From contig JAHFFT010000004.1 in NCBI GenBank assembly GCA_023247795.1, positions 9,739 through 73,738 of the forward strand: DNA of 64,000 bases, given 5' to 3'. The notes beneath the pieces are model-generated. The model had not been told where the DNA came from. It made no database searches and saw nothing but the letters and a program-made list of their open reading frames with translations. This document shows, piece by piece, positions 17,400 through 23,618 of this stretch (the stretch's first letter is position 1; the number at the start of each line of letters is the position of its first letter). The DNA is from Candidatus Omnitrophota bacterium (GTDB lineage Bacteria; Omnitrophota; Gorgyraeia; Zapsychrales; JANLHA01). Position numbers and translations under genes: made by a program.

Positions 17400-18260
17400 T
17401 CATTTCAAATATTTTCCAATCAAAACTTCCAATGCCTTCTTTTTCTCTTCAGGAATAGCCTCGGGGGCAGTGATAATCGCATTTTTTAAAGCGCTGTGCG
17501 CCTCAAAATGCTTGATCCCCGCGGCCTTAGGAATGGCTTTTTCTAAAATGCGTTTGGCGTTCACAATATTTTTTTGCAGATTGGCGATGATCATCTCGAC
17601 GGTAACCGTATCATGCCCTTCGTGCCAGCAATCATAATCCGTCACTGCCGCCAATGTCACATAAGCGATTTCCGCTTCGCGAGCCAATTTGGCCTCGGTC
17701 CCATTGGTCATGCCGATGACCGACATCCCCCAACTGCGATAAAGGTTTGATTCTGCTTTGGTCGAAAATTGCGGACCTTCCATCGTGACATACGTGCCAC
17801 CATCGTGCGCGGTCAAGCGACACTCTTGGGCGGATGACAACAAAACCTTACGTAGTTCCGACGAGAAAGGATCGGCAAAAGCCACATGGGCGACAATGCC
17901 GCCGGTAAAAAAACTACTCTCCCGCTGGCCGCGCGTCCGGTCGAGCAATTGATCTGGAACCACAAAATCCATCGGCTTCAACTCTTCTTTCAGACTGCCG
18001 CAGGCGGAAATCGAAATGATCGCATCGACCCCTAATTTCTTCATGCCGAAAATGTTGGCCCGATAATTGATTTCGCTCGGCGAAAACCGATGACCTTTTC
18101 CATGGCGGGGAAGAAAAACCACCTCAACCCCTTGATACGTCCCTAAAAGATAATGACTCGAAGGTTCACCGAAAGGTGTTGATAAATATCGGTCTTCCAG
18201 ATTCTTGATCCCATCCAAATCATACAATCCGCTTCCACCAATCACGCCGATCTTTGCCAT
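17400..18260 (-). CDS. mtnP: S-methyl-5'-thioadenosine phosphorylase.
   Basis: 286 aa with a PNP/MTAP fold (MAKIGVIGGSGLYD…, …VIGMTNGTEAKLAREAEI…). Confidence 0.85.
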   Translation of the reverse strand: MAKIGVIGGSGLYDLDGIKNLEDRYLSTPFGEPSSHYLLGTYQGVEVVFLPRHGKGHRFSPSEINYRANIFGMKKLGVDAIISISACGSLKEELKPMDFVVPDQLLDRTRGQRESSFFTGGIVAHVAFADPFSSELRKVLLSSAQECRLTAHDGGTYVTMEGPQFSTKAESNLYRSWGMSVIGMTNGTEAKLAREAEIAYVTLAAVTDYDCWHEGHDTVTVEMIIANLQKNIVNAKRILEKAIPKAAGIKHFEAHSALKNAIITAPEAIPEEKKKALEVLIGKYLK

Positions 18261-18272
18261 AGGTTTCTCCTA

Positions 18273-19058
18273 TTAACTTTTCGATAATGTCTTGGCCCGT
18301 CTTTTTGCCGCGACCAGCGCCAATTGAAAAATATGATCAATTTTTTTGCTCAGGAAAATCTTCATTGCTGCCCCAGTGGTGCCACCCTTTGAGGTGACTT
18401 TTTTACGCAGCTCTGACGGGTCTTCCTTGAGCAGTTGCCATTGCTTTAAACTTCCAAACAGCGTTTTCCGAATCAACGGGTCAGCCAAATCTTGTTTCAG
18501 ACCTAAGACCTTAGCACTCTTTTGCAGACACTCGATAAAAAGAAAAACATACGCCGGGCCGCTGCCTGATAATGCGGTCACCGCGTCCATATCTCTTTCA
18601 TCGACCACAACAACTTCTCCAACTCGACCTAGAATTTCAGACGCAATCGCGATATCCTTTGTTGTTGCATTGGGTCCACGACAAATCGCTGTTATTCCCT
18701 CACCGATCTGTGCCGGCATGTTAGGCATCGTTCGAATGATGCTCGCATCCTTGGCCAATCGTTTCGCGAAAAATCTCGTCGTGAGACCGGCCGCGATGGA
18801 AATGAAAAGCTTTCCCTTAATATCTTTGATCTCTTTCAACACATCTTCCATGGCCTGCGGTTTGACCGCGAGGATGATGATCTCATTTTCGTGTACCAAG
18901 GCCTGCAAATCCTGTGCCTTCACGTTAAATTTTTGAGCCAAAGCGGTTCGACGTCGAGGATCAGTTTCGCACACACCAACCCGATAACGCTTATGCAGCG
19001 CCTGGATCAACGCGGTTCCCATGTTCCCGCCACCGATGATGCCGATAGTTTTTTTCAT
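18273..19058 (-). CDS. proC: Pyrroline-5-carboxylate reductase.
   Basis: Rossmann motif IGIIGGGNMG plus the P5CR C-terminal dimerisation domain. ATG at 19058 is preferred over the track start. Confidence 0.85.
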   Translation of the reverse strand: MKKTIGIIGGGNMGTALIQALHKRYRVGVCETDPRRRTALAQKFNVKAQDLQALVHENEIIILAVKPQAMEDVLKEIKDIKGKLFISIAAGLTTRFFAKRLAKDASIIRTMPNMPAQIGEGITAICRGPNATTKDIAIASEILGRVGEVVVVDERDMDAVTALSGSGPAYVFLFIECLQKSAKVLGLKQDLADPLIRKTLFGSLKQWQLLKEDPSELRKKVTSKGGTTGAAMKIFLSKKIDHIFQLALVAAKRRAKTLSKS

Positions 19059-19065
19059 AGTCTCT

Positions 19066-19749
19066 TTACTCCCCAAATATCGCCCGACCGATCCTCAACA
19101 TATTCGATCCCTCTTCCAACGCGATCTTATAATCCTGCGTCATTCCCATCGAAAGATATTTCATATCCAGACGTGGATGCCCTTGCCAGCGCCGCTTACC
19201 GTCTTCAAAAATTTTGCGCAAATCGGAAAAACTCTGACGGACTACTTTTTCATCATCAACAAGCGGTGCCATGGCCATACAGCCCTGCAGACGTAGATGT
19301 GACAAGGCAAGAATCTGTTCGATTAAAATCGCGGCGTCGTCTGGAGATGCACCAAACTTTTGTGATTCTCCTGAAGTGTTGACCTGTAAAAAGATATCAA
19401 CAGTCTTCGCTGATTTTTCTGCCTGCTGCTGGATGGCCTCGGCCAAGCGCAACGAATCAACCGACTGGATGCAATCAAAAAACGTCAACGCGAGTTTCAC
19501 TTTATTAGTCTGCAAATGGCCGATCAAATGTTTGGTCACCGATGAGGTGAGGACTGGGAACTTCTTTTGCCCTTCCTGAACCTTATTTTCACCGATATGT
19601 TTCAGCCCAGCGTCGATAGCAGCCTGAATTTTATCCGTACCCGTAAACTTTGTAACGCCAACGATCGCGATTTCTTTGGGATCCCGTTTGAGCTTTTGGC
19701 AAATTCCAGCGATTTCTCCTCGAATCTGCTCAATACGATCCTTAATCAT
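19066..19749 (-). CDS. yggS: YggS/PLPHP-family pyridoxal-phosphate homeostasis protein.
   Basis: 227 aa with an alanine-racemase-N-like TIM barrel and the PLP-lysine context VGVTKF. The yggS-proC pairing is conserved. Confidence 0.85.
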   Translation of the reverse strand: MIKDRIEQIRGEIAGICQKLKRDPKEIAIVGVTKFTGTDKIQAAIDAGLKHIGENKVQEGQKKFPVLTSSVTKHLIGHLQTNKVKLALTFFDCIQSVDSLRLAEAIQQQAEKSAKTVDIFLQVNTSGESQKFGASPDDAAILIEQILALSHLRLQGCMAMAPLVDDEKVVRQSFSDLRKIFEDGKRRWQGHPRLDMKYLSMGMTQDYKIALEEGSNMLRIGRAIFGE

Positions 19750-19885
19750 TGCAATAAACTAACATAAAAGATTTCAACCGTCAATCAATGCCGTTTCTCT
19801 CTCTGGGGAGTGTCTTGGGAAGGAACAAACGACGAAGGCCTCCTAGGGTTTGTATTAAAAAGCGTATGGCAAATATCTGATATTC

Positions 19886-19981
19886 TCTCCCTTCTTCAAG
19901 GTCGCAAATTGCGTCCTTGTGAAAATTTAGGGGCAAATATCGACGACCACCCAAATTTGAGGTCGCAAATTGCGACCTCAA
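19886..19981. promoter_or_regulatory. Two copies of an operator-like palindrome GGTCGCAAATTGCGACC about 70 bp apart. The first is imperfect (CAAGGTCGCAAATTGCGTCCTTG); the second is perfect (TGAGGTCGCAAATTGCGACCTCA).
   Basis: Read directly. They lie between the yggS start and the 3' end of the Cys-rich repeat gene. Each could act as a stem-loop or as a dimer binding site. Confidence 0.4.
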
Positions 19982-20078
19982 GTTATCATATTCATTTCGC
20001 ATCAGCCGGAATATAAAGTCTGGTGGGAATCTTTTAAAAAAAGCAGGATCCGTCCCTAATTATTTCAAGAATCGGGAT

Positions 20079-20435
20079 TCAGTTACAAATTTGCTCCCAA
20101 TGCCCATCAACACATCTACCAATTTGACAGCCAATTCTAGGAATTGGTTTAATTCCACAGGACAAGGTTGGAGAGCTATCGCAAATTTGCTCCCAATAGC
20201 CATCAACACATCTACCAATTCGACAACCAATTTTAGGAATTGGTTTAATTCCACAGGACAAGGTTGGAGAGCTATCGCAAATTTGCTCCCAATAGCCATC
20301 AACACATCTGCCAACCCGACAGCCTATATTGGGAATTGGCTTTATACCGCAATTTAAGTTAGCGTTAGCATAAAATGGTGTTCCCATTACTACAATCAAA
20401 CATATAATTATTTTAACAATCAATTTACGGTTCAT
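20079..20435 (-). CDS. Secreted cysteine-rich tandem-repeat protein (118 aa). A signal peptide is followed by three 32-aa repeats with consensus CGIKPIPxIGCxxGRCVDG(Y/H)WEQIC(DSSPTLS).
   Basis: RBS AAGGAG sits 6 nt upstream of ATG at 20435. The signal peptide is MNRKLIVKIIICLIVVMGTPFYANA. Each repeat has 4 Cys (12 in total). The repeats are about 95% identical at the DNA level. Confidence 0.7.
   Translation of the reverse strand: MNRKLIVKIIICLIVVMGTPFYANANLNCGIKPIPNIGCRVGRCVDGYWEQICDSSPTLSCGIKPIPKIGCRIGRCVDGYWEQICDSSPTLSCGIKPIPRIGCQIGRCVDGHWEQICN
20086..20370. repeat. Tandem direct repeat, 3 copies of 96 bp (the third diverges at its 3' end), coding.
   Basis: The CAAATTTGCTCCCAAT… unit begins at 20086, 20182 and 20278. 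There are about 5 mismatches between copies 1 and 2. Confidence 0.9.
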
Positions 20436-20808
20436 TTTTCTCCTTTCGAAATACAGCTTCACGTAATTTCTGAATTTTAACTTCATAACTGCTGTCCTTT
20501 TTTACCTGTAAGTCAAAAAGGCGAAGCAGTTGGTCAATGCCTTTTTTTGCGTCTTCTGCCATGTCCTTATTTTGATTATTGATGTTGGCGACCGAATTAT
20601 CAAAATTAACTTTTTCTCTTTCTTGAAGACGTGGGAAGTATTCCCGCCTTGCTCCCCAATTAGTCACGAATAATGACACTAGAGACAATATGATAAAGAT
20701 TGCAAAGGTTGTAATTGTGTTAAACGGCGAGTTAAATAAAACGGTTCTACCTTTCAAATCACCCCATGTTGTAAATTTCTCTAATTCAAGAACTGACCAT
20801 TGAATCAT
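20425..20808 (-). CDS. Small single-pass membrane protein (about 127 aa), translationally coupled to the Cys-rich repeat gene.
   Basis: One TM helix (TITTFAIFIILSLVSLFVTNW) and a charged C-terminal tail. Its stop TAA (20425-27) overlaps the downstream ATG (20435) by 11 nt. The track start at 20832 is a TTG; ATG at 20808 is preferred. Confidence 0.5.
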   Translation of the reverse strand: MIQWSVLELEKFTTWGDLKGRTVLFNSPFNTITTFAIFIILSLVSLFVTNWGARREYFPRLQEREKVNFDNSVANINNQNKDMAEDAKKGIDQLLRLFDLQVKKDSSYEVKIQKLREAVFRKEKNEP

Positions 20809-20877
20809 GAAACATAACACCACAAGCGACAATCCAATCCAACCATTATATTTTTGGATTATTTTGTCTTTTACACT

Positions 20878-20895
20878 TTAGGGACGGACCCTACT
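20878..20895. repeat. REP-like motif TTTAGGGACGGACCCTAC.
   Basis: Member of the GGG(A/T)C-N-G(A/T)CCC family that recurs in intergenic sites. Confidence 0.5.
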
Positions 20896-20935
20896 TTTCG
20901 TTCAAATTTTTTTTGGAAAATGGCGTCAAAATAAA

Positions 20936-21406
20936 TTATAAGGCATCCATCTCAATTTCCAACGGTTCAATAATAGTCAAAATTTTGTCTTTGAACTTAA
21001 GATGCCCCCACGAATAATACCAGACAAACGGATCTGACCTCCATCTCCTATAGGTCCAAATTTCTTCATTAAACTTCTTTTTATTAATATTCGTTGGTTT
21101 TCCCGCTAAAGCGATTACCTGGTCTTCATTCATCCCTTTTAATAAAGTTAATTCTCGCATAGCCTCAGCTTGAAGAGAGGGTGTTTCTGGATAAGTATCT
21201 AGGTAGCTTTTAACACGATTCTTCAATTTACTCACATCAAGATATCGCTTTGAACCTTTGTAATAAGGGTTGTCTATCCATTCTTTCTCATTAAATAATT
21301 GCTTGCTTTCATATTGTCTGACATGTAATTCGGAATAAAGAGGAAAATTCCTTAAATAATTGCATCCTGAAAAAAAAATTATTACGATAATTAAAAAAAC
21401 CTTCAA
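20936..21406 (-). CDS. Lipoprotein with lipobox FFSGC.
   Basis: TTG at 21406 is preceded by AGGAGA at 6 nt and gives MKVFLIIVIIFFSGC…, a textbook lipoprotein signal. The track ATG at 21457 would add 17 aa encoded by a REP-like motif (21436-21452). Confidence 0.55.
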   Translation of the reverse strand: MKVFLIIVIIFFSGCNYLRNFPLYSELHVRQYESKQLFNEKEWIDNPYYKGSKRYLDVSKLKNRVKSYLDTYPETPSLQAEAMRELTLLKGMNEDQVIALAGKPTNINKKKFNEEIWTYRRWRSDPFVWYYSWGHLKFKDKILTIIEPLEIEMDAL

Positions 21407-21435
21407 AATTTCTCTCCTTGTTTCGTTGGAATAAC

Positions 21436-21452
21436 TAGGGGCGGACCCTAAT
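21436..21452. repeat. REP-like motif TAGGGGCGGACCCTAAT.
   Basis: Same family as 20878 and 21515. Confidence 0.5.
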
Positions 21453-21514
21453 TTCATTTTTCTTGGGGACTTTTATTAACAATTATTATAACATCATCAA
21501 CACCTCTGTCAAAA

Positions 21515-21532
21515 GTAGGGTCCGTCCCCTAT
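21515..21532. repeat. REP-like motif GTAGGGTCCGTCCCCTAT.
   Basis: Same family, in the intergenic region between the RsmB-like gene and the lipoprotein. Confidence 0.5.
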
Positions 21533-21541
21533 TTAAATAAG

Positions 21542-22480
21542 TTACGATTCTGCTGTCAGTTTGGCAATGAAAAAGCCTTCCATCACGCGATTCGGTAAAA
21601 CGCGTAGGGACAAACTCACCTGCGGATCAAAATCCCGTTTGCCCCAAGCCTTTATTGCAGGATATTGATCAATCTGGGGCACTTCGATGGGTACAACCCG
21701 CAAACGCCGCTCTGTCTTCCTTAATACCCAATCCAAAACCCCTTCATTTTCTTCCGGCGCAAACGTGCAGGTCGAATAAACAAGCGTTCCCTGTGGTTTC
21801 AAAAGCCGGGTCGCATTCAGCAAAAGCCCTCGCTGCTTCTGCACCATCTCTTTGATTTTACGCGGACTCCAATATTGATAGGATTCTGGCTCGCCTGCAA
21901 AAAAACGTCCCTCACTGCTGCAAGGGGCATCAACAAGAATCCGGTCAAACTGCTGTTGCGACCGATAGCGTCGGGCATCTAAAAACCGCGTGTGAACATT
22001 TTGAACATCAAGCAATTTCAAAACCGATTTCAATTTAAAAATCCGACCACGGATCGCTTCACAAGCCGTGATCTCTCCCTGGTTCTGCATCCGTGCGGCC
22101 AGGTGCGAGGTCTTGCTCCCCGGAGCAGCGCAAAGATCAAGCACCGCTTCTCCTGGTCGAGGATCAAGCAAGTGGACCACCAGCATACTTGACAATCCTT
22201 GCCGGTAAAAAACCCCCTGTTCACACCAGGAGTCCCAATCCTCGTCCTGTTCCGGACGTTGATTCAAGATCAGTGCTTCAGCGCACCAAGGGACACGCTG
22301 AAAAGCAATTCCCTTTTGCTTAAATAAGGAAAGGGCCTGCTCTTCTGAAATTTTTAAAGAATTGATCCTGATCGAGAAGCAGCGCGGCTGAACCAAAGAA
22401 TCTAAAACTGGGGAAGAAAATTCTGTTGGGATGATCGATTGCAGTCGTTGTAAAAATTCCGGCGGGAAGGATAAACTCAT
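21542..22480 (-). CDS. RsmB/NOP2/Sun-family rRNA (cytosine-C5) methyltransferase.
   Basis: SAM motif DLCAAPGSKT and the catalytic Cys motifs DAPCS and YSTCT. Confidence 0.8.
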   Translation of the reverse strand: MSLSFPPEFLQRLQSIIPTEFSSPVLDSLVQPRCFSIRINSLKISEEQALSLFKQKGIAFQRVPWCAEALILNQRPEQDEDWDSWCEQGVFYRQGLSSMLVVHLLDPRPGEAVLDLCAAPGSKTSHLAARMQNQGEITACEAIRGRIFKLKSVLKLLDVQNVHTRFLDARRYRSQQQFDRILVDAPCSSEGRFFAGEPESYQYWSPRKIKEMVQKQRGLLLNATRLLKPQGTLVYSTCTFAPEENEGVLDWVLRKTERRLRVVPIEVPQIDQYPAIKAWGKRDFDPQVSLSLRVLPNRVMEGFFIAKLTAES

Positions 22481-22998
22481 TTTTTCTTCATCGCGTCAAA
22501 ACGAATGCTTTTAATAGCCGTGTCAAATGCCGAACGATACTCTGAGAATGACTGCGATGCCGAGCAATAAACGTTATAAACCAAATCCCGCTCTTCGACC
22601 TCAATCAAATATTGCAAGGTTGTGATGTCCCCATGTTTGTAAATGAGCCATTCCGCGTGTCGGCCAGCAATCATGATCCGCCCCTGTTCTTGAATGGGCT
22701 GGTTCGTCCGCAGAATACGTCTGCGTTCCGACATGATGTTTGTGTCCCGGCCAGCCGTTGTCAAGCCAACAGAGATTTCCGCGCCATAAAAATCCCGCGC
22801 CCCGCCGCTAGGACTAGCATAAATGTCATAGTTGAGGGAATAGCTTTTACTCTTCGCCCAAAAATCCGGCAATTGGATCGAATACCACATGACTTCATTA
22901 TGGACACGATTCTTTTGCCAACCGCATCCTGAAAAAAATCCTGTGAGAATAAGACAGCTGGAAATGATTGATAAAACAAATGTCCGACGGTGAGGCAC
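22477..22998 (-). CDS. Lipoprotein of unknown function.
   Basis: Signal peptide with lipobox LTGFFSGC, the same FFSGC as the lipoprotein at 20936. Confidence 0.6.
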   Translation of the reverse strand: MPHRRTFVLSIISSCLILTGFFSGCGWQKNRVHNEVMWYSIQLPDFWAKSKSYSLNYDIYASPSGGARDFYGAEISVGLTTAGRDTNIMSERRRILRTNQPIQEQGRIMIAGRHAEWLIYKHGDITTLQYLIEVEERDLVYNVYCSASQSFSEYRSAFDTAIKSIRFDAMKKK

Positions 22999-23618
22999 TA
23001 AAAAAGCATCTCCTGATTGACTTGTTCAATCTTAAAATTTGGTTTCACAATCCCAAATTTTTTATACAATTCTTTAAAACTCTCGACCCGAGTTTCAAAC
23101 GCGGTATCCAAAAGCGAATTGAAGACCGCGGCCGTGGTTTGCACGTCGGCCAAGGCCCGATGCGAATCTGTGACCAAAACGCCCAGACCTCGGGCTAACG
23201 AAGGAAGGCTGTAACTGCGAAGGTGCGGGATCAATTCCTTGGCCATCTTCAAGGTATCGATGGCGGGGGTTTCTTCCCGCAACTTTCGTCCCAAAAGAGA
23301 AAGTTCATAGCAAAGAAAATCCAAATCAAATTTGATATTGTGCCCGACCAGGCAAGCCCCATTGATAAAATCGGTCATCCGCGTCAAAGCCTCTTCTCTC
23401 GACGGCGCGTCTTTGACCATGTCTACGCTAATGCCATGAAGACGTTGGGCCTCTTCTGGGATATCACGCTGTGGGTTGACCAGTGATTCAAAATGCTCGA
23501 CGATCTTTTGATTTTTGAACCGGATCGCCGCGATCTCTACGATGCGGTCTCCCCCCTCAGGGGTCAACCCCGTCGTCTCCACGTCGAAAATGACATATTC
23601 CGCTTGCTTGATATTCAA
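22998..23618 (-). CDS. DnaQ-like 3'-5' exonuclease (DEDDh).
   Basis: Exo I motif FDVETTGL, Exo II motif HNIKFDLDFL, Exo III motif HRALADV. Confidence 0.8.
   Translation of the reverse strand: MNIKQAEYVIFDVETTGLTPEGGDRIVEIAAIRFKNQKIVEHFESLVNPQRDIPEEAQRLHGISVDMVKDAPSREEALTRMTDFINGACLVGHNIKFDLDFLCYELSLLGRKLREETPAIDTLKMAKELIPHLRSYSLPSLARGLGVLVTDSHRALADVQTTAAVFNSLLDTAFETRVESFKELYKKFGIVKPNFKIEQVNQEMLF

Follow-up and report, generated by a model that had tools for sequence, protein, structure and literature searches.

The described systems that come closest to the protein reported here are built on small modules or cysteine-closed loops. EGF domains pair their six cysteines as C1-C3, C2-C4 and C5-C6; Bowman-Birk inhibitors are defined by a loop of nine residues from cysteine to cysteine, with Ser or Ala after the P1 residue and a cis-proline at P3'; the inhibitory element of Ivy is a short cysteine-closed loop, CKPHDC; and tandem modules of the LysM or SPOR type gain avidity through multivalency. 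Within a 64,000-nucleotide stretch of the genome of a Candidatus Omnitrophota bacterium (contig JAHFFT010000004.1, positions 9,739 to 73,738; hereafter the window, whose numbering we use throughout), a gene at 20079-20435 on the minus strand encodes a protein that shares features with each of these systems and belongs to none: a signal peptide followed by three tandem modules with four cysteines apiece. Our preferred reading, which we regard as evenly poised, is that this repeat protein is exported by Sec, left uncleaved, and serves as a string of disulfide-stabilized mini-domains, a multivalent envelope binding unit for a conserved ligand.

A rare family of exported four-cysteine modules

Translation of the open reading frame (ORF), from an ATG at 20435 to a stop at 20079-20081, gives 118 residues: MNRKLIVKIIICLIVVMGTPFYANA|NLN, then three modules of the form CGIKPIPxIGCxxGRCVDG(Y/H)WEQIC, joined by the linker DSSPTLS. 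Each module has 25 residues with its cysteines spaced C-x9-C-x4-C-x8-C, and the period is 32 residues, much as an original prediction made from the sequence alone had described. The first 25 residues, MNRKLIVKIIICLIVVMGTPFYANA, were recognized by eye as a signal peptide that ends in an AxA-type site and lacks a lipobox. They parse into n-, h- and c-regions as MNRK / LIVKIIICLIVVMG / TPFYANA|N, the profile of a Sec substrate of signal peptidase I, which, judging by this leader, likely cuts after ANA; the mature protein would have ~93 residues, ~10 kDa and 12 cysteines. Leaders of homologs finish ...AQA|Q, ...ASA|Q or ...YAD|G. The strong ribosome-binding site noted by the original prediction is a Shine-Dalgarno AAGGAG at 20440-20445 on the minus strand, 4 nt 5' of the ATG, and it sits within the final codons of the upstream membrane ORF discussed below. 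The exact 118-residue product is absent from the protein collection in which it was looked up, likely because the gene caller chose an upstream ATG, giving a 135-residue ORF.

A module hidden Markov model recovered 345 distinct modules, on which all residue counts here are based. Essentially invariant among them are C1, C3 (344 of 345), W21 (345 of 345), P5, G2, G10 and G19, and position 4 is basic in 316 (Lys in 283, Arg in 33). All four cysteines are present in 301 modules, while 36 have the pattern CxCx, in which C4 is absent and C2 is replaced by Tyr, His or Phe; any other pattern occurs at most five times, mostly in cut alignments. Because C2 and C4 vanish as a pair, this covariation indicates disulfides C1-C3 and C2-C4 in each module, and because C1 and C3 are kept when the other two are jointly lost, it argues against a single four-cysteine metal site. 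An AlphaFold2 model (32-sequence alignment, mean pLDDT 83.4) predicts a loop plus β-hairpin for every module and a short turn for every linker. The linker is itself conserved, with the consensus D-S/R-N/S-P-x-L-S, and carries neither a dibasic nor any other recognizable cleavage motif. The repeat gene is under purifying selection, with dN/dS of 0.11-0.14 against its orthologs at loci L038 and L016.

The family to which the protein belongs is rare and scattered over diderm phyla. A word-indexed search returned 88 homologs at E≤0.01, every one unnamed; an exhaustive profile search among 1.84 billion cluster representatives found 118 at E≤1e-3; and a scan of one genome per species gave 22 repeat-gene loci, the closest relative, at 77% identity, being again from Omnitrophota. 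Other loci come from Steroidobacteraceae, Woeseiaceae, a Coxiella-like metagenome-assembled genome, the cultured gammaproteobacterium Thalassotalea euphylliae KCTC 42743, Burkholderiales, Thermodesulfobacteriota, Myxococcales (Myxococcota), Bdellovibrionia (Bdellovibrionota) and Nitrospirota. There is also a Gemmatimonadota record. The family is without prior description. Scans of the three islet proteins (repeat, membrane and lipoprotein, all introduced below) against Pfam, NCBIfam, PADLOC and PHROGs yielded nothing above threshold; PDB profile searches with the whole repeat protein, a single module or the membrane protein gave no match; tblastn of plasmid and phage collections gave no match to the repeat family; and nothing relevant to the module motif or keywords was found in the literature. 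The earlier suspicion that the module lies outside known families is thereby upheld.

Module number and context vary across the family, and the modules themselves keep to one end of the protein. Among 191 module-bearing proteins, 49 have one module (many of these being fragments), 72 have two, 66 have three and four have four. With four modules in P0097 and five in a 196-residue protein of an uncultured gammaproteobacterium (L033, 3360-3950), the number is thus not fixed at two or three, and spans one to five. The period is 32 residues in 158 of 218 module pairs, the linker is 7 residues long in 142 of 162, and the last module lies within 4 residues of the C-terminus in 153 of the 191 proteins. 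A free-standing signal peptide plus modules is the commonest form. Long N-terminal parts precede the modules in ~40 proteins, and several of these are clearly true fusions: to BamE above the Pfam cut-off in P0145 (E=9e-6) and P0171 (E=1.4e-5), to DUF4156 in P0110, to RcsF in P0192, to Sel1 in P0125 and to Ank in P0098. The BamE signal in P0058 is weak, and P0178 is BamE-like by eye only; P0117 has only sub-threshold matches to TPR, MIT and Sel1; and P0101 and P0103 are Cys-rich repeat proteins, Sel1-like by eye and without a Pfam match. In more than 20 proteins the modules come after an outer-membrane lipoprotein domain (BamE-like, RcsF, DUF4156 or Sel1). In many of the fusion proteins a lipobox is present and the modules are preceded by a long Q/N-rich linker. 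Because the fusion partners are typical domains of inner-leaflet outer-membrane lipoproteins, they place the module in the periplasm/outer-membrane compartment; and because it is fused at the C-terminus of larger lipoproteins, the module would act there as a permanent domain and not as a released peptide.

How the three modules of the window came about can be read in part from their nucleotides. They occupy 20277-20351 (module 1, residues 29-53, CGIKPIPNIGCRVGRCVDGYWEQIC), 20181-20255 (module 2, residues 61-85) and 20085-20159 (module 3, residues 93-117, CGIKPIPRIGCQIGRCVDGHWEQIC, then one residue and the stop), all on the minus strand. Tandem Repeats Finder reports a period of 96, 2.7 copies, 92% matches and a score of 432, and identity between the two most similar 96-nt units reaches 95%, the figure originally given; in coding register, modules 1 and 2 agree at 85 of 96 nt and modules 2 and 3 at 71 of 81. 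Module 2 is a chimera of the other two: its 5' 56 nt match module 3 at all but 3 positions, and its last 52 nt, linker included, are identical to module 1. By this pattern it is evidently the product of recent unequal recombination, and is what unequal crossover within a two-module gene would be expected to give. An allele of that kind, P0004/P0202, consists of module 1, linker and module 3 and comes from other samples with the same three-gene layout on the contig; it could alternatively have arisen by deletion, or by collapse during assembly. The three-module form here arose, or is kept, by unequal recombination among modules.

The original prediction had taken the near-identity of the repeats to imply recent duplication or concerted evolution, which fits module 2 of the window but not the modules of other genomes, which are old paralogs. 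Within single genes of 11 other genomes, modules share 64-83% nucleotide identity and, except in the divergent L005, 72-100% amino acid identity, with dN of 0.04-0.19 and saturated synonymous sites; modules 1 and 3 of L018 encode exactly the same peptide (100% identity) even though only 71% of their nucleotides agree. With dS saturated and dN low, the likeness of the modules is kept by selection on the peptide, and not just by recent duplication.

A proposed envelope binding unit and its closest rivals

In the model that we propose, the ~10-kDa repeat protein would be exported by Sec and retained in the envelope of its diderm host as three independently folded mini-domains in a string. Each N-terminal loop, C-G-x-K-P-x-P-x-x-G-C, would be pinned by C1-C3 and C2-C4 onto the hairpin C-R-I-G-R-C-V-D-G-x-W-E-Q-I-C; contact with the ligand would be made by the invariant loop and the invariant Trp, and the presence of two or three copies would supply avidity. 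The ligand may be a conserved envelope component, for example peptidoglycan or an outer-membrane protein, in which case no dedicated partner gene would be needed. The adjacent membrane ORF we read as the leftover of an ancestral neighbor in this clade and not a working partner. The analysis establishes the architecture of the protein, its export signal, purifying selection on every module, the joint disappearance of C2 and C4, the placement of the modules at the C-terminus, their repeated fusion to outer-membrane lipoprotein domains and the lack of partner genes; the uncleaved multivalent unit, its binding and its ligand are our inference.

Several points weigh against this model. Structure and family searches turned up no solved or annotated relative from which a function, or a ligand, could be transferred. 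The disulfide pairing is read from cysteine covariation; the free-standing form, which is the commonest, would equally fit a soluble inhibitor or a secreted effector; and retention in the envelope, as opposed to release to the medium, is deduced from the lipoprotein fusions alone. Some of the long fusions, other than the lipobox-bearing or Pfam-positive ones, may be gene-calling extensions. Finally, the membrane ORF, whose frame is open and whose dN/dS is low, may have kept some residual function.

It is also conceivable, although we think it doubtful, that the module founds a new class of envelope mini-domain with a specific biochemical activity. The most attractive option is inhibition, by several heads, of proteases or muramidases of foreign origin; the other is a plug or adaptor for outer-membrane β-barrels. 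Either would have spread horizontally among environmental diderms and been appended to lipoproteins of the BamE/RcsF type.

The rival that survives best, unlikely as we judge it, is a multi-headed enzyme inhibitor, in which each cysteine-closed G-x-K/R-P-x-P loop, rigid and resembling a reactive site, blocks a protease or lysozyme-type enzyme that attacks or resides in the envelope, the tandem copies supply the several heads, and the fusions are anchored versions. The conserved basic residue at loop position 4, the prolines around it and the closure of the loop by cysteines would all suit such a role, as would small, stand-alone genes in accessory islands with a patchy distribution that suggests horizontal transfer. 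The contact residues of inhibitor families are, however, usually hypervariable, whereas few parts of the module are as well conserved as this loop. A proline comes right after the putative P1 Lys, and canonical serine-protease inhibitors disfavor proline at that position; no inhibitor family gave a match in sequence or fold, and BamE, RcsF and Sel1 are not typical inhibitor carriers. A Trypsin_2 protease gene does lie within 2.6 kb of the repeat gene in 2 of 21 loci, directly downstream in L005, but two such loci with a common protease family are weak evidence.

Cleavage of the linkers after export, releasing two or three ~3.5-kDa disulfide-stapled hairpins with an antimicrobial or signaling role, strikes us as quite improbable. 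A leader followed by repeated cysteine-framed cores with a constant 7-residue spacer, in anything from one to five copies, does have the look of a polyprotein precursor, and the two-disulfide β-hairpin is a known antimicrobial-peptide scaffold. Yet the linker is conserved, lacks a cleavage motif and adopts a short structured turn in the model; the modules carry a roughly neutral charge; and the neighborhood shows no recurring gene for a protease, a transporter or immunity. Moreover, the same modules occur as permanent C-terminal domains of lipoproteins.

Whatever its ligand, the module is a compact 25-residue, strongly constrained, two-disulfide domain that is absent from databases and occurs from Omnitrophota to Gammaproteobacteria, free or at the C-terminus of outer-membrane lipoproteins. 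It lends itself cleanly to structural work and to the search for ligands, and could possibly serve as a stable scaffold. We regard the domain family as new but its general kind as familiar, and on its own it opens no long-standing question.

The upstream membrane gene and the accessory islet

Directly upstream of the repeat gene, the original prediction had placed a 127-residue single-pass membrane protein. Comparison with homologs recasts this ORF as a 5'-truncated gene (20425-20877, minus strand): full-length homologs have 193-196 residues and three predicted helices, and the window copy matches homolog residues ~50-194, lacking ~49 N-terminal residues. Neither of the listed starts, TTG 20832 or ATG 20808, is preceded by a recognizable Shine-Dalgarno sequence; the two genes flanking this ORF each have an AAGGAG. 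Upstream of the listed start the frame runs on as SVKDKIIQKYNGWIG, equivalent to homolog residues 50-64, until a TAA at 20878-20880, within a copy of a repeated motif, interrupts it. At the other end, the stop (TAA, 20427-20425) overlaps the repeat gene by 11 nt, ATGAACCGTAA, and so the overlap originally reported is real in the window. Homologs terminate in ...VFKN*, ...VFKE* or ...VFAKDI*, and the window copy in ...VFRKEKNEP*, having read 5-6 codons past the point where the homologs end and entered the repeat gene. The overlap exists because, relative to L038 and L016, the window has lost ~22 nt holding the membrane-gene stop codon and the spacer.

Could the two proteins nonetheless make up a genuine two-component system—anchor and ligand, or toxin and immunity—that cooperates and is translationally coupled? 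The window, L016 and L038 are related loci in which the genes lie side by side and point the same way, and in L038 the pair is intact: a membrane gene for 196 residues, then an 18-nt spacer with no overlap, then a repeat gene for 117 residues and three modules, on an island that also carries a phage-type integrase and a RAMA-domain gene. Moreover, the window remnant has an open frame and a dN/dS of 0.10 against intact copies, and on these grounds the truncation is recent, or the remnant still constrained. L016, also from Omnitrophota, tells against the proposal: it is 90% identical to L038 in nucleotides from L038 position 5450 onward, but retains only the last 44 membrane codons, from residue ~149, and its repeat gene begins ~30 nt after the remnant's stop. 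With the breakpoint at residue ~50 in the window, the membrane gene has thus been degraded independently in two of the three clade members. An intact membrane gene stands beside AbiEii, HEPN_AbiU2 and Mrr-type genes, with no repeat gene, at two distinct loci, L015 and L013/L014 (one region, present in two assemblies), and no membrane gene was found at the ~20 repeat-gene loci in other phyla. Because those loci do without it, the adjacency is taken to be inherited within one clade. Only in L038 are both genes intact and adjacent, and only in the window lineage do stop and start overlap by 11 nt. We therefore hold a two-component system to be very improbable, and the co-translated cassette of the original prediction, whose two genes prove not to be co-conserved when checked over genomes, gives way: gene decay can by accident leave two genes in tidy overlap that form no functional cassette.

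The full-length membrane family of ~194 residues has a context of its own. It comprises eight cluster representatives only; its genes at L013 622-1206, L015 8001-8585 and L038 5001-5591 lie in defense or mobile surroundings with AbiEii, HEPN_AbiU2, Mrr_cat, RAMA and phage integrase genes. It has no Pfam, PADLOC or PHROG match, and the AlphaFold2 model of the membrane protein, at pLDDT 64, was not used for fold search.

No other neighbor accompanies the repeat gene with any regularity. All-vs-all BLAST of 238 neighboring ORFs, drawn from 25 non-redundant loci, placed no family at more than three of them, and a Pfam scan of 143 neighboring proteins from 21 loci found no family with more than three members; because no neighbor family recurs over these 21-25 loci, we read a dedicated export, immunity or partner system, or one of the type that makes ribosomally synthesized and post-translationally modified peptides (RiPPs), as excluded. 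Beside the window gene itself there is no radical-SAM, LanM or protease gene, as had been noted. The multi-core RiPP precursor of the original prediction, or alternatively a metal-binding Cys4 array, may draw on the Cys-rich cores repeated behind a leader, on the four invariant cysteines of each module and on a radical-SAM gene ~1 kb upstream in one locus (L005, ending 1023 nt before the repeat gene), but is hardly credible given that no modifying enzyme recurs, that the leader is an ordinary Sec signal peptide and the linker has no obvious processing site, that C2 and C4 are lost together with C1 and C3 kept, as two separate disulfides and not a four-ligand metal site would have it, that the spacing is not a CxxC knuckle pattern, and that the modules are also lipoprotein domains.

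The repeat gene, the membrane remnant and a lipoprotein gene share an islet of low GC content (0.33-0.40 over 20200-21600 vs ~0.47 in the flanks). In a strain whose yggS is at least 90% identical (same 90% cluster), an ORF6N gene occupies the site in place of the islet gene, and the three genes are on this account placed in a strain-variable, repeat-bounded accessory insertion, in line with the accessory islet first proposed. Scanning the window for Rfam families and tRNAs returned no hit. Bounding the islet is a 21-nt motif, AAAAGTAGGGTCCGTCCC-TAA, half of the palindrome AAAAGTAGGG-N5-CCCTACTTTT, with four copies, all in the islet and none elsewhere in the 64 kb. Hairpins had been called at 20878, 21436 and 21515, and all three are present; the copy missed earlier is the first, at 20039-20059 (AAAAGCAGGATCCGTCCCTAA), just 3' of the repeat gene. 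Copy 2 (20878-20898, TTAGGGACGGACCCTACTTTT) contains the TAA that closes the homology to full-length membrane genes, and forms with copy 1 an inverted pair, 90% complementary. Copies 3 and 4 (21431-21453 and 21511-21533) are a second inverted pair, 57 nt apart, with a fold z-score of -4.0. Homology between the window and L038 (75% over 806 nt, window 20871-20066) ends within ~7 nt of copies 1 and 2; since it stops at both, these copies bracket the L038-homologous segment.

As candidates for the motif we consider the ends of a miniature inverted-repeat transposable element, recombination sites, or something else. An integron cassette is defined by an attC site with an R''/R' core (RYYYAAC / GTTRRRY) and a nearby intI; the inverted motif pairs show no GTTRRRY core by eye, and there is no integrase ORF in 18000-23500. 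A motif scan of metagenomes gave 120+ matches, mostly single; some 115 single matches are near the chance expectation for a degenerate 18-mer, and the scan therefore does not show a widespread element. Tight inverted pairs (GGGGACGGACCCTACTTTTT...AAAAAGTAGGGTCCGTCCCC) occur on only three unrelated contigs, two of them high-GC (L041 221-278, L049 578-628 and L090 2355-2400).

Between motif copies 3 and 4 lies a sigma-70 promoter (21512-21485, minus strand; TTGACA-16-TATAAT with an upstream TG, 12/12 consensus) that faces the lipoprotein, membrane-remnant and repeat genes. The lipoprotein gene (20936-21406, minus strand) likely starts at TTG 21406, though the listed ORF reaches 21457; its AAGGAG lies at 21419-21414, and its product opens with MKVFLIIVIIFFSGC, with the lipobox FFSGC. 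Against Pfam BamE it scores 16.5 bits, below the cut-off of 23.2 (E=0.007), and it has a single homolog, at 40% identity, among 5.8 billion clusters. It also matches the fusion protein P0058 (BLASTP E=0.009). A Rosetta-stone link from a BamE-like lipoprotein to the Cys modules is suggestive only, a weak hint from a near-orphan protein. The FFSGC lipobox recurs in a second small lipoprotein-like ORF (22477-22998, minus strand, 173 residues, ...LTGFFSGC), which falls just beyond the low-GC islet. Between the end of the repeat gene and the start of yggS, the double palindrome described originally resolves into two 19-nt palindromes, AGGTCGCAAATTGCG(A/T)CCT, at 19899-19917 and 19960-19978. These copies of AGGTCGCAAATTGCGACCT, 61 nt apart, have no other exact match in the window and one match with 3 mismatches, at 17760; they could be a terminator or stabilizer hairpin, or an operator pair.

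Comparison with known systems

Cyclotide and defensin polyproteins and multi-core RiPP precursors share with the repeat protein a leader followed by repeated cysteine-framed cores. Unlike them, the repeat gene has no processing or modifying genes nearby, and its linker is conserved and apparently structured; a modifying enzyme, protease or transporter conserved beside the gene, the hallmark of a RiPP locus, was not found across the 21-25 loci.

Similar in organization are Ivy, PliC/MliC and ecotin, small exported stand-alone proteins of diderm bacteria that lack operon partners and come in free and lipid-anchored forms. These are, however, single larger domains, with no homology to the modules and no common fold detected. 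Bowman-Birk inhibitors and SFTI-1 offer a likeness at the level of the loop, which in both cases is closed by cysteines and presents a basic residue with I-P two positions on (CTKSIPPxC vs CGIKPIPxxGC), in multi-headed tandem arrays. The module differs in having nine residues between the loop cysteines, not seven, and another cysteine framework; its loop measures 11 residues from cysteine to cysteine and has Pro after the Lys position in 341 of 345 modules. Profile searches of the PDB with the whole protein and with the module returned no inhibitor chain, Bowman-Birk inhibitor and SFTI-1 included, at E≤10.

In fold, the nearest likeness is to EGF-like and TNF-receptor modules, which are likewise tandem mini-domains of ~25-40 residues on a disulfide-pinned β-hairpin. 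The only fold neighbors, all non-significant, were CD40/TNFR (Foldseek E=0.37) and the EGF strings of Jagged/Serrate. A sub-threshold match to Pfam EGF_STAB1-2 appears in 21 of 32 family members and is best in the window protein itself (E=0.00087; 20.1 bits against a gathering cut-off of 27). Where EGF has six cysteines, however, the modules here have four (301 of 345) or two (36 of 345).

For the envelope binding unit that we favor, a further comparison is with the C-terminal modules of LysM, SPOR and OmpA-like type. These do not depend on disulfides and have no sequence or fold kinship with the modules described here. They nonetheless share the same arrangement, sitting terminally or in repeats on envelope lipoproteins, joined by flexible linkers, and also occurring in module-only proteins; it is in their manner, by our inference, that the four-cysteine modules may bind.

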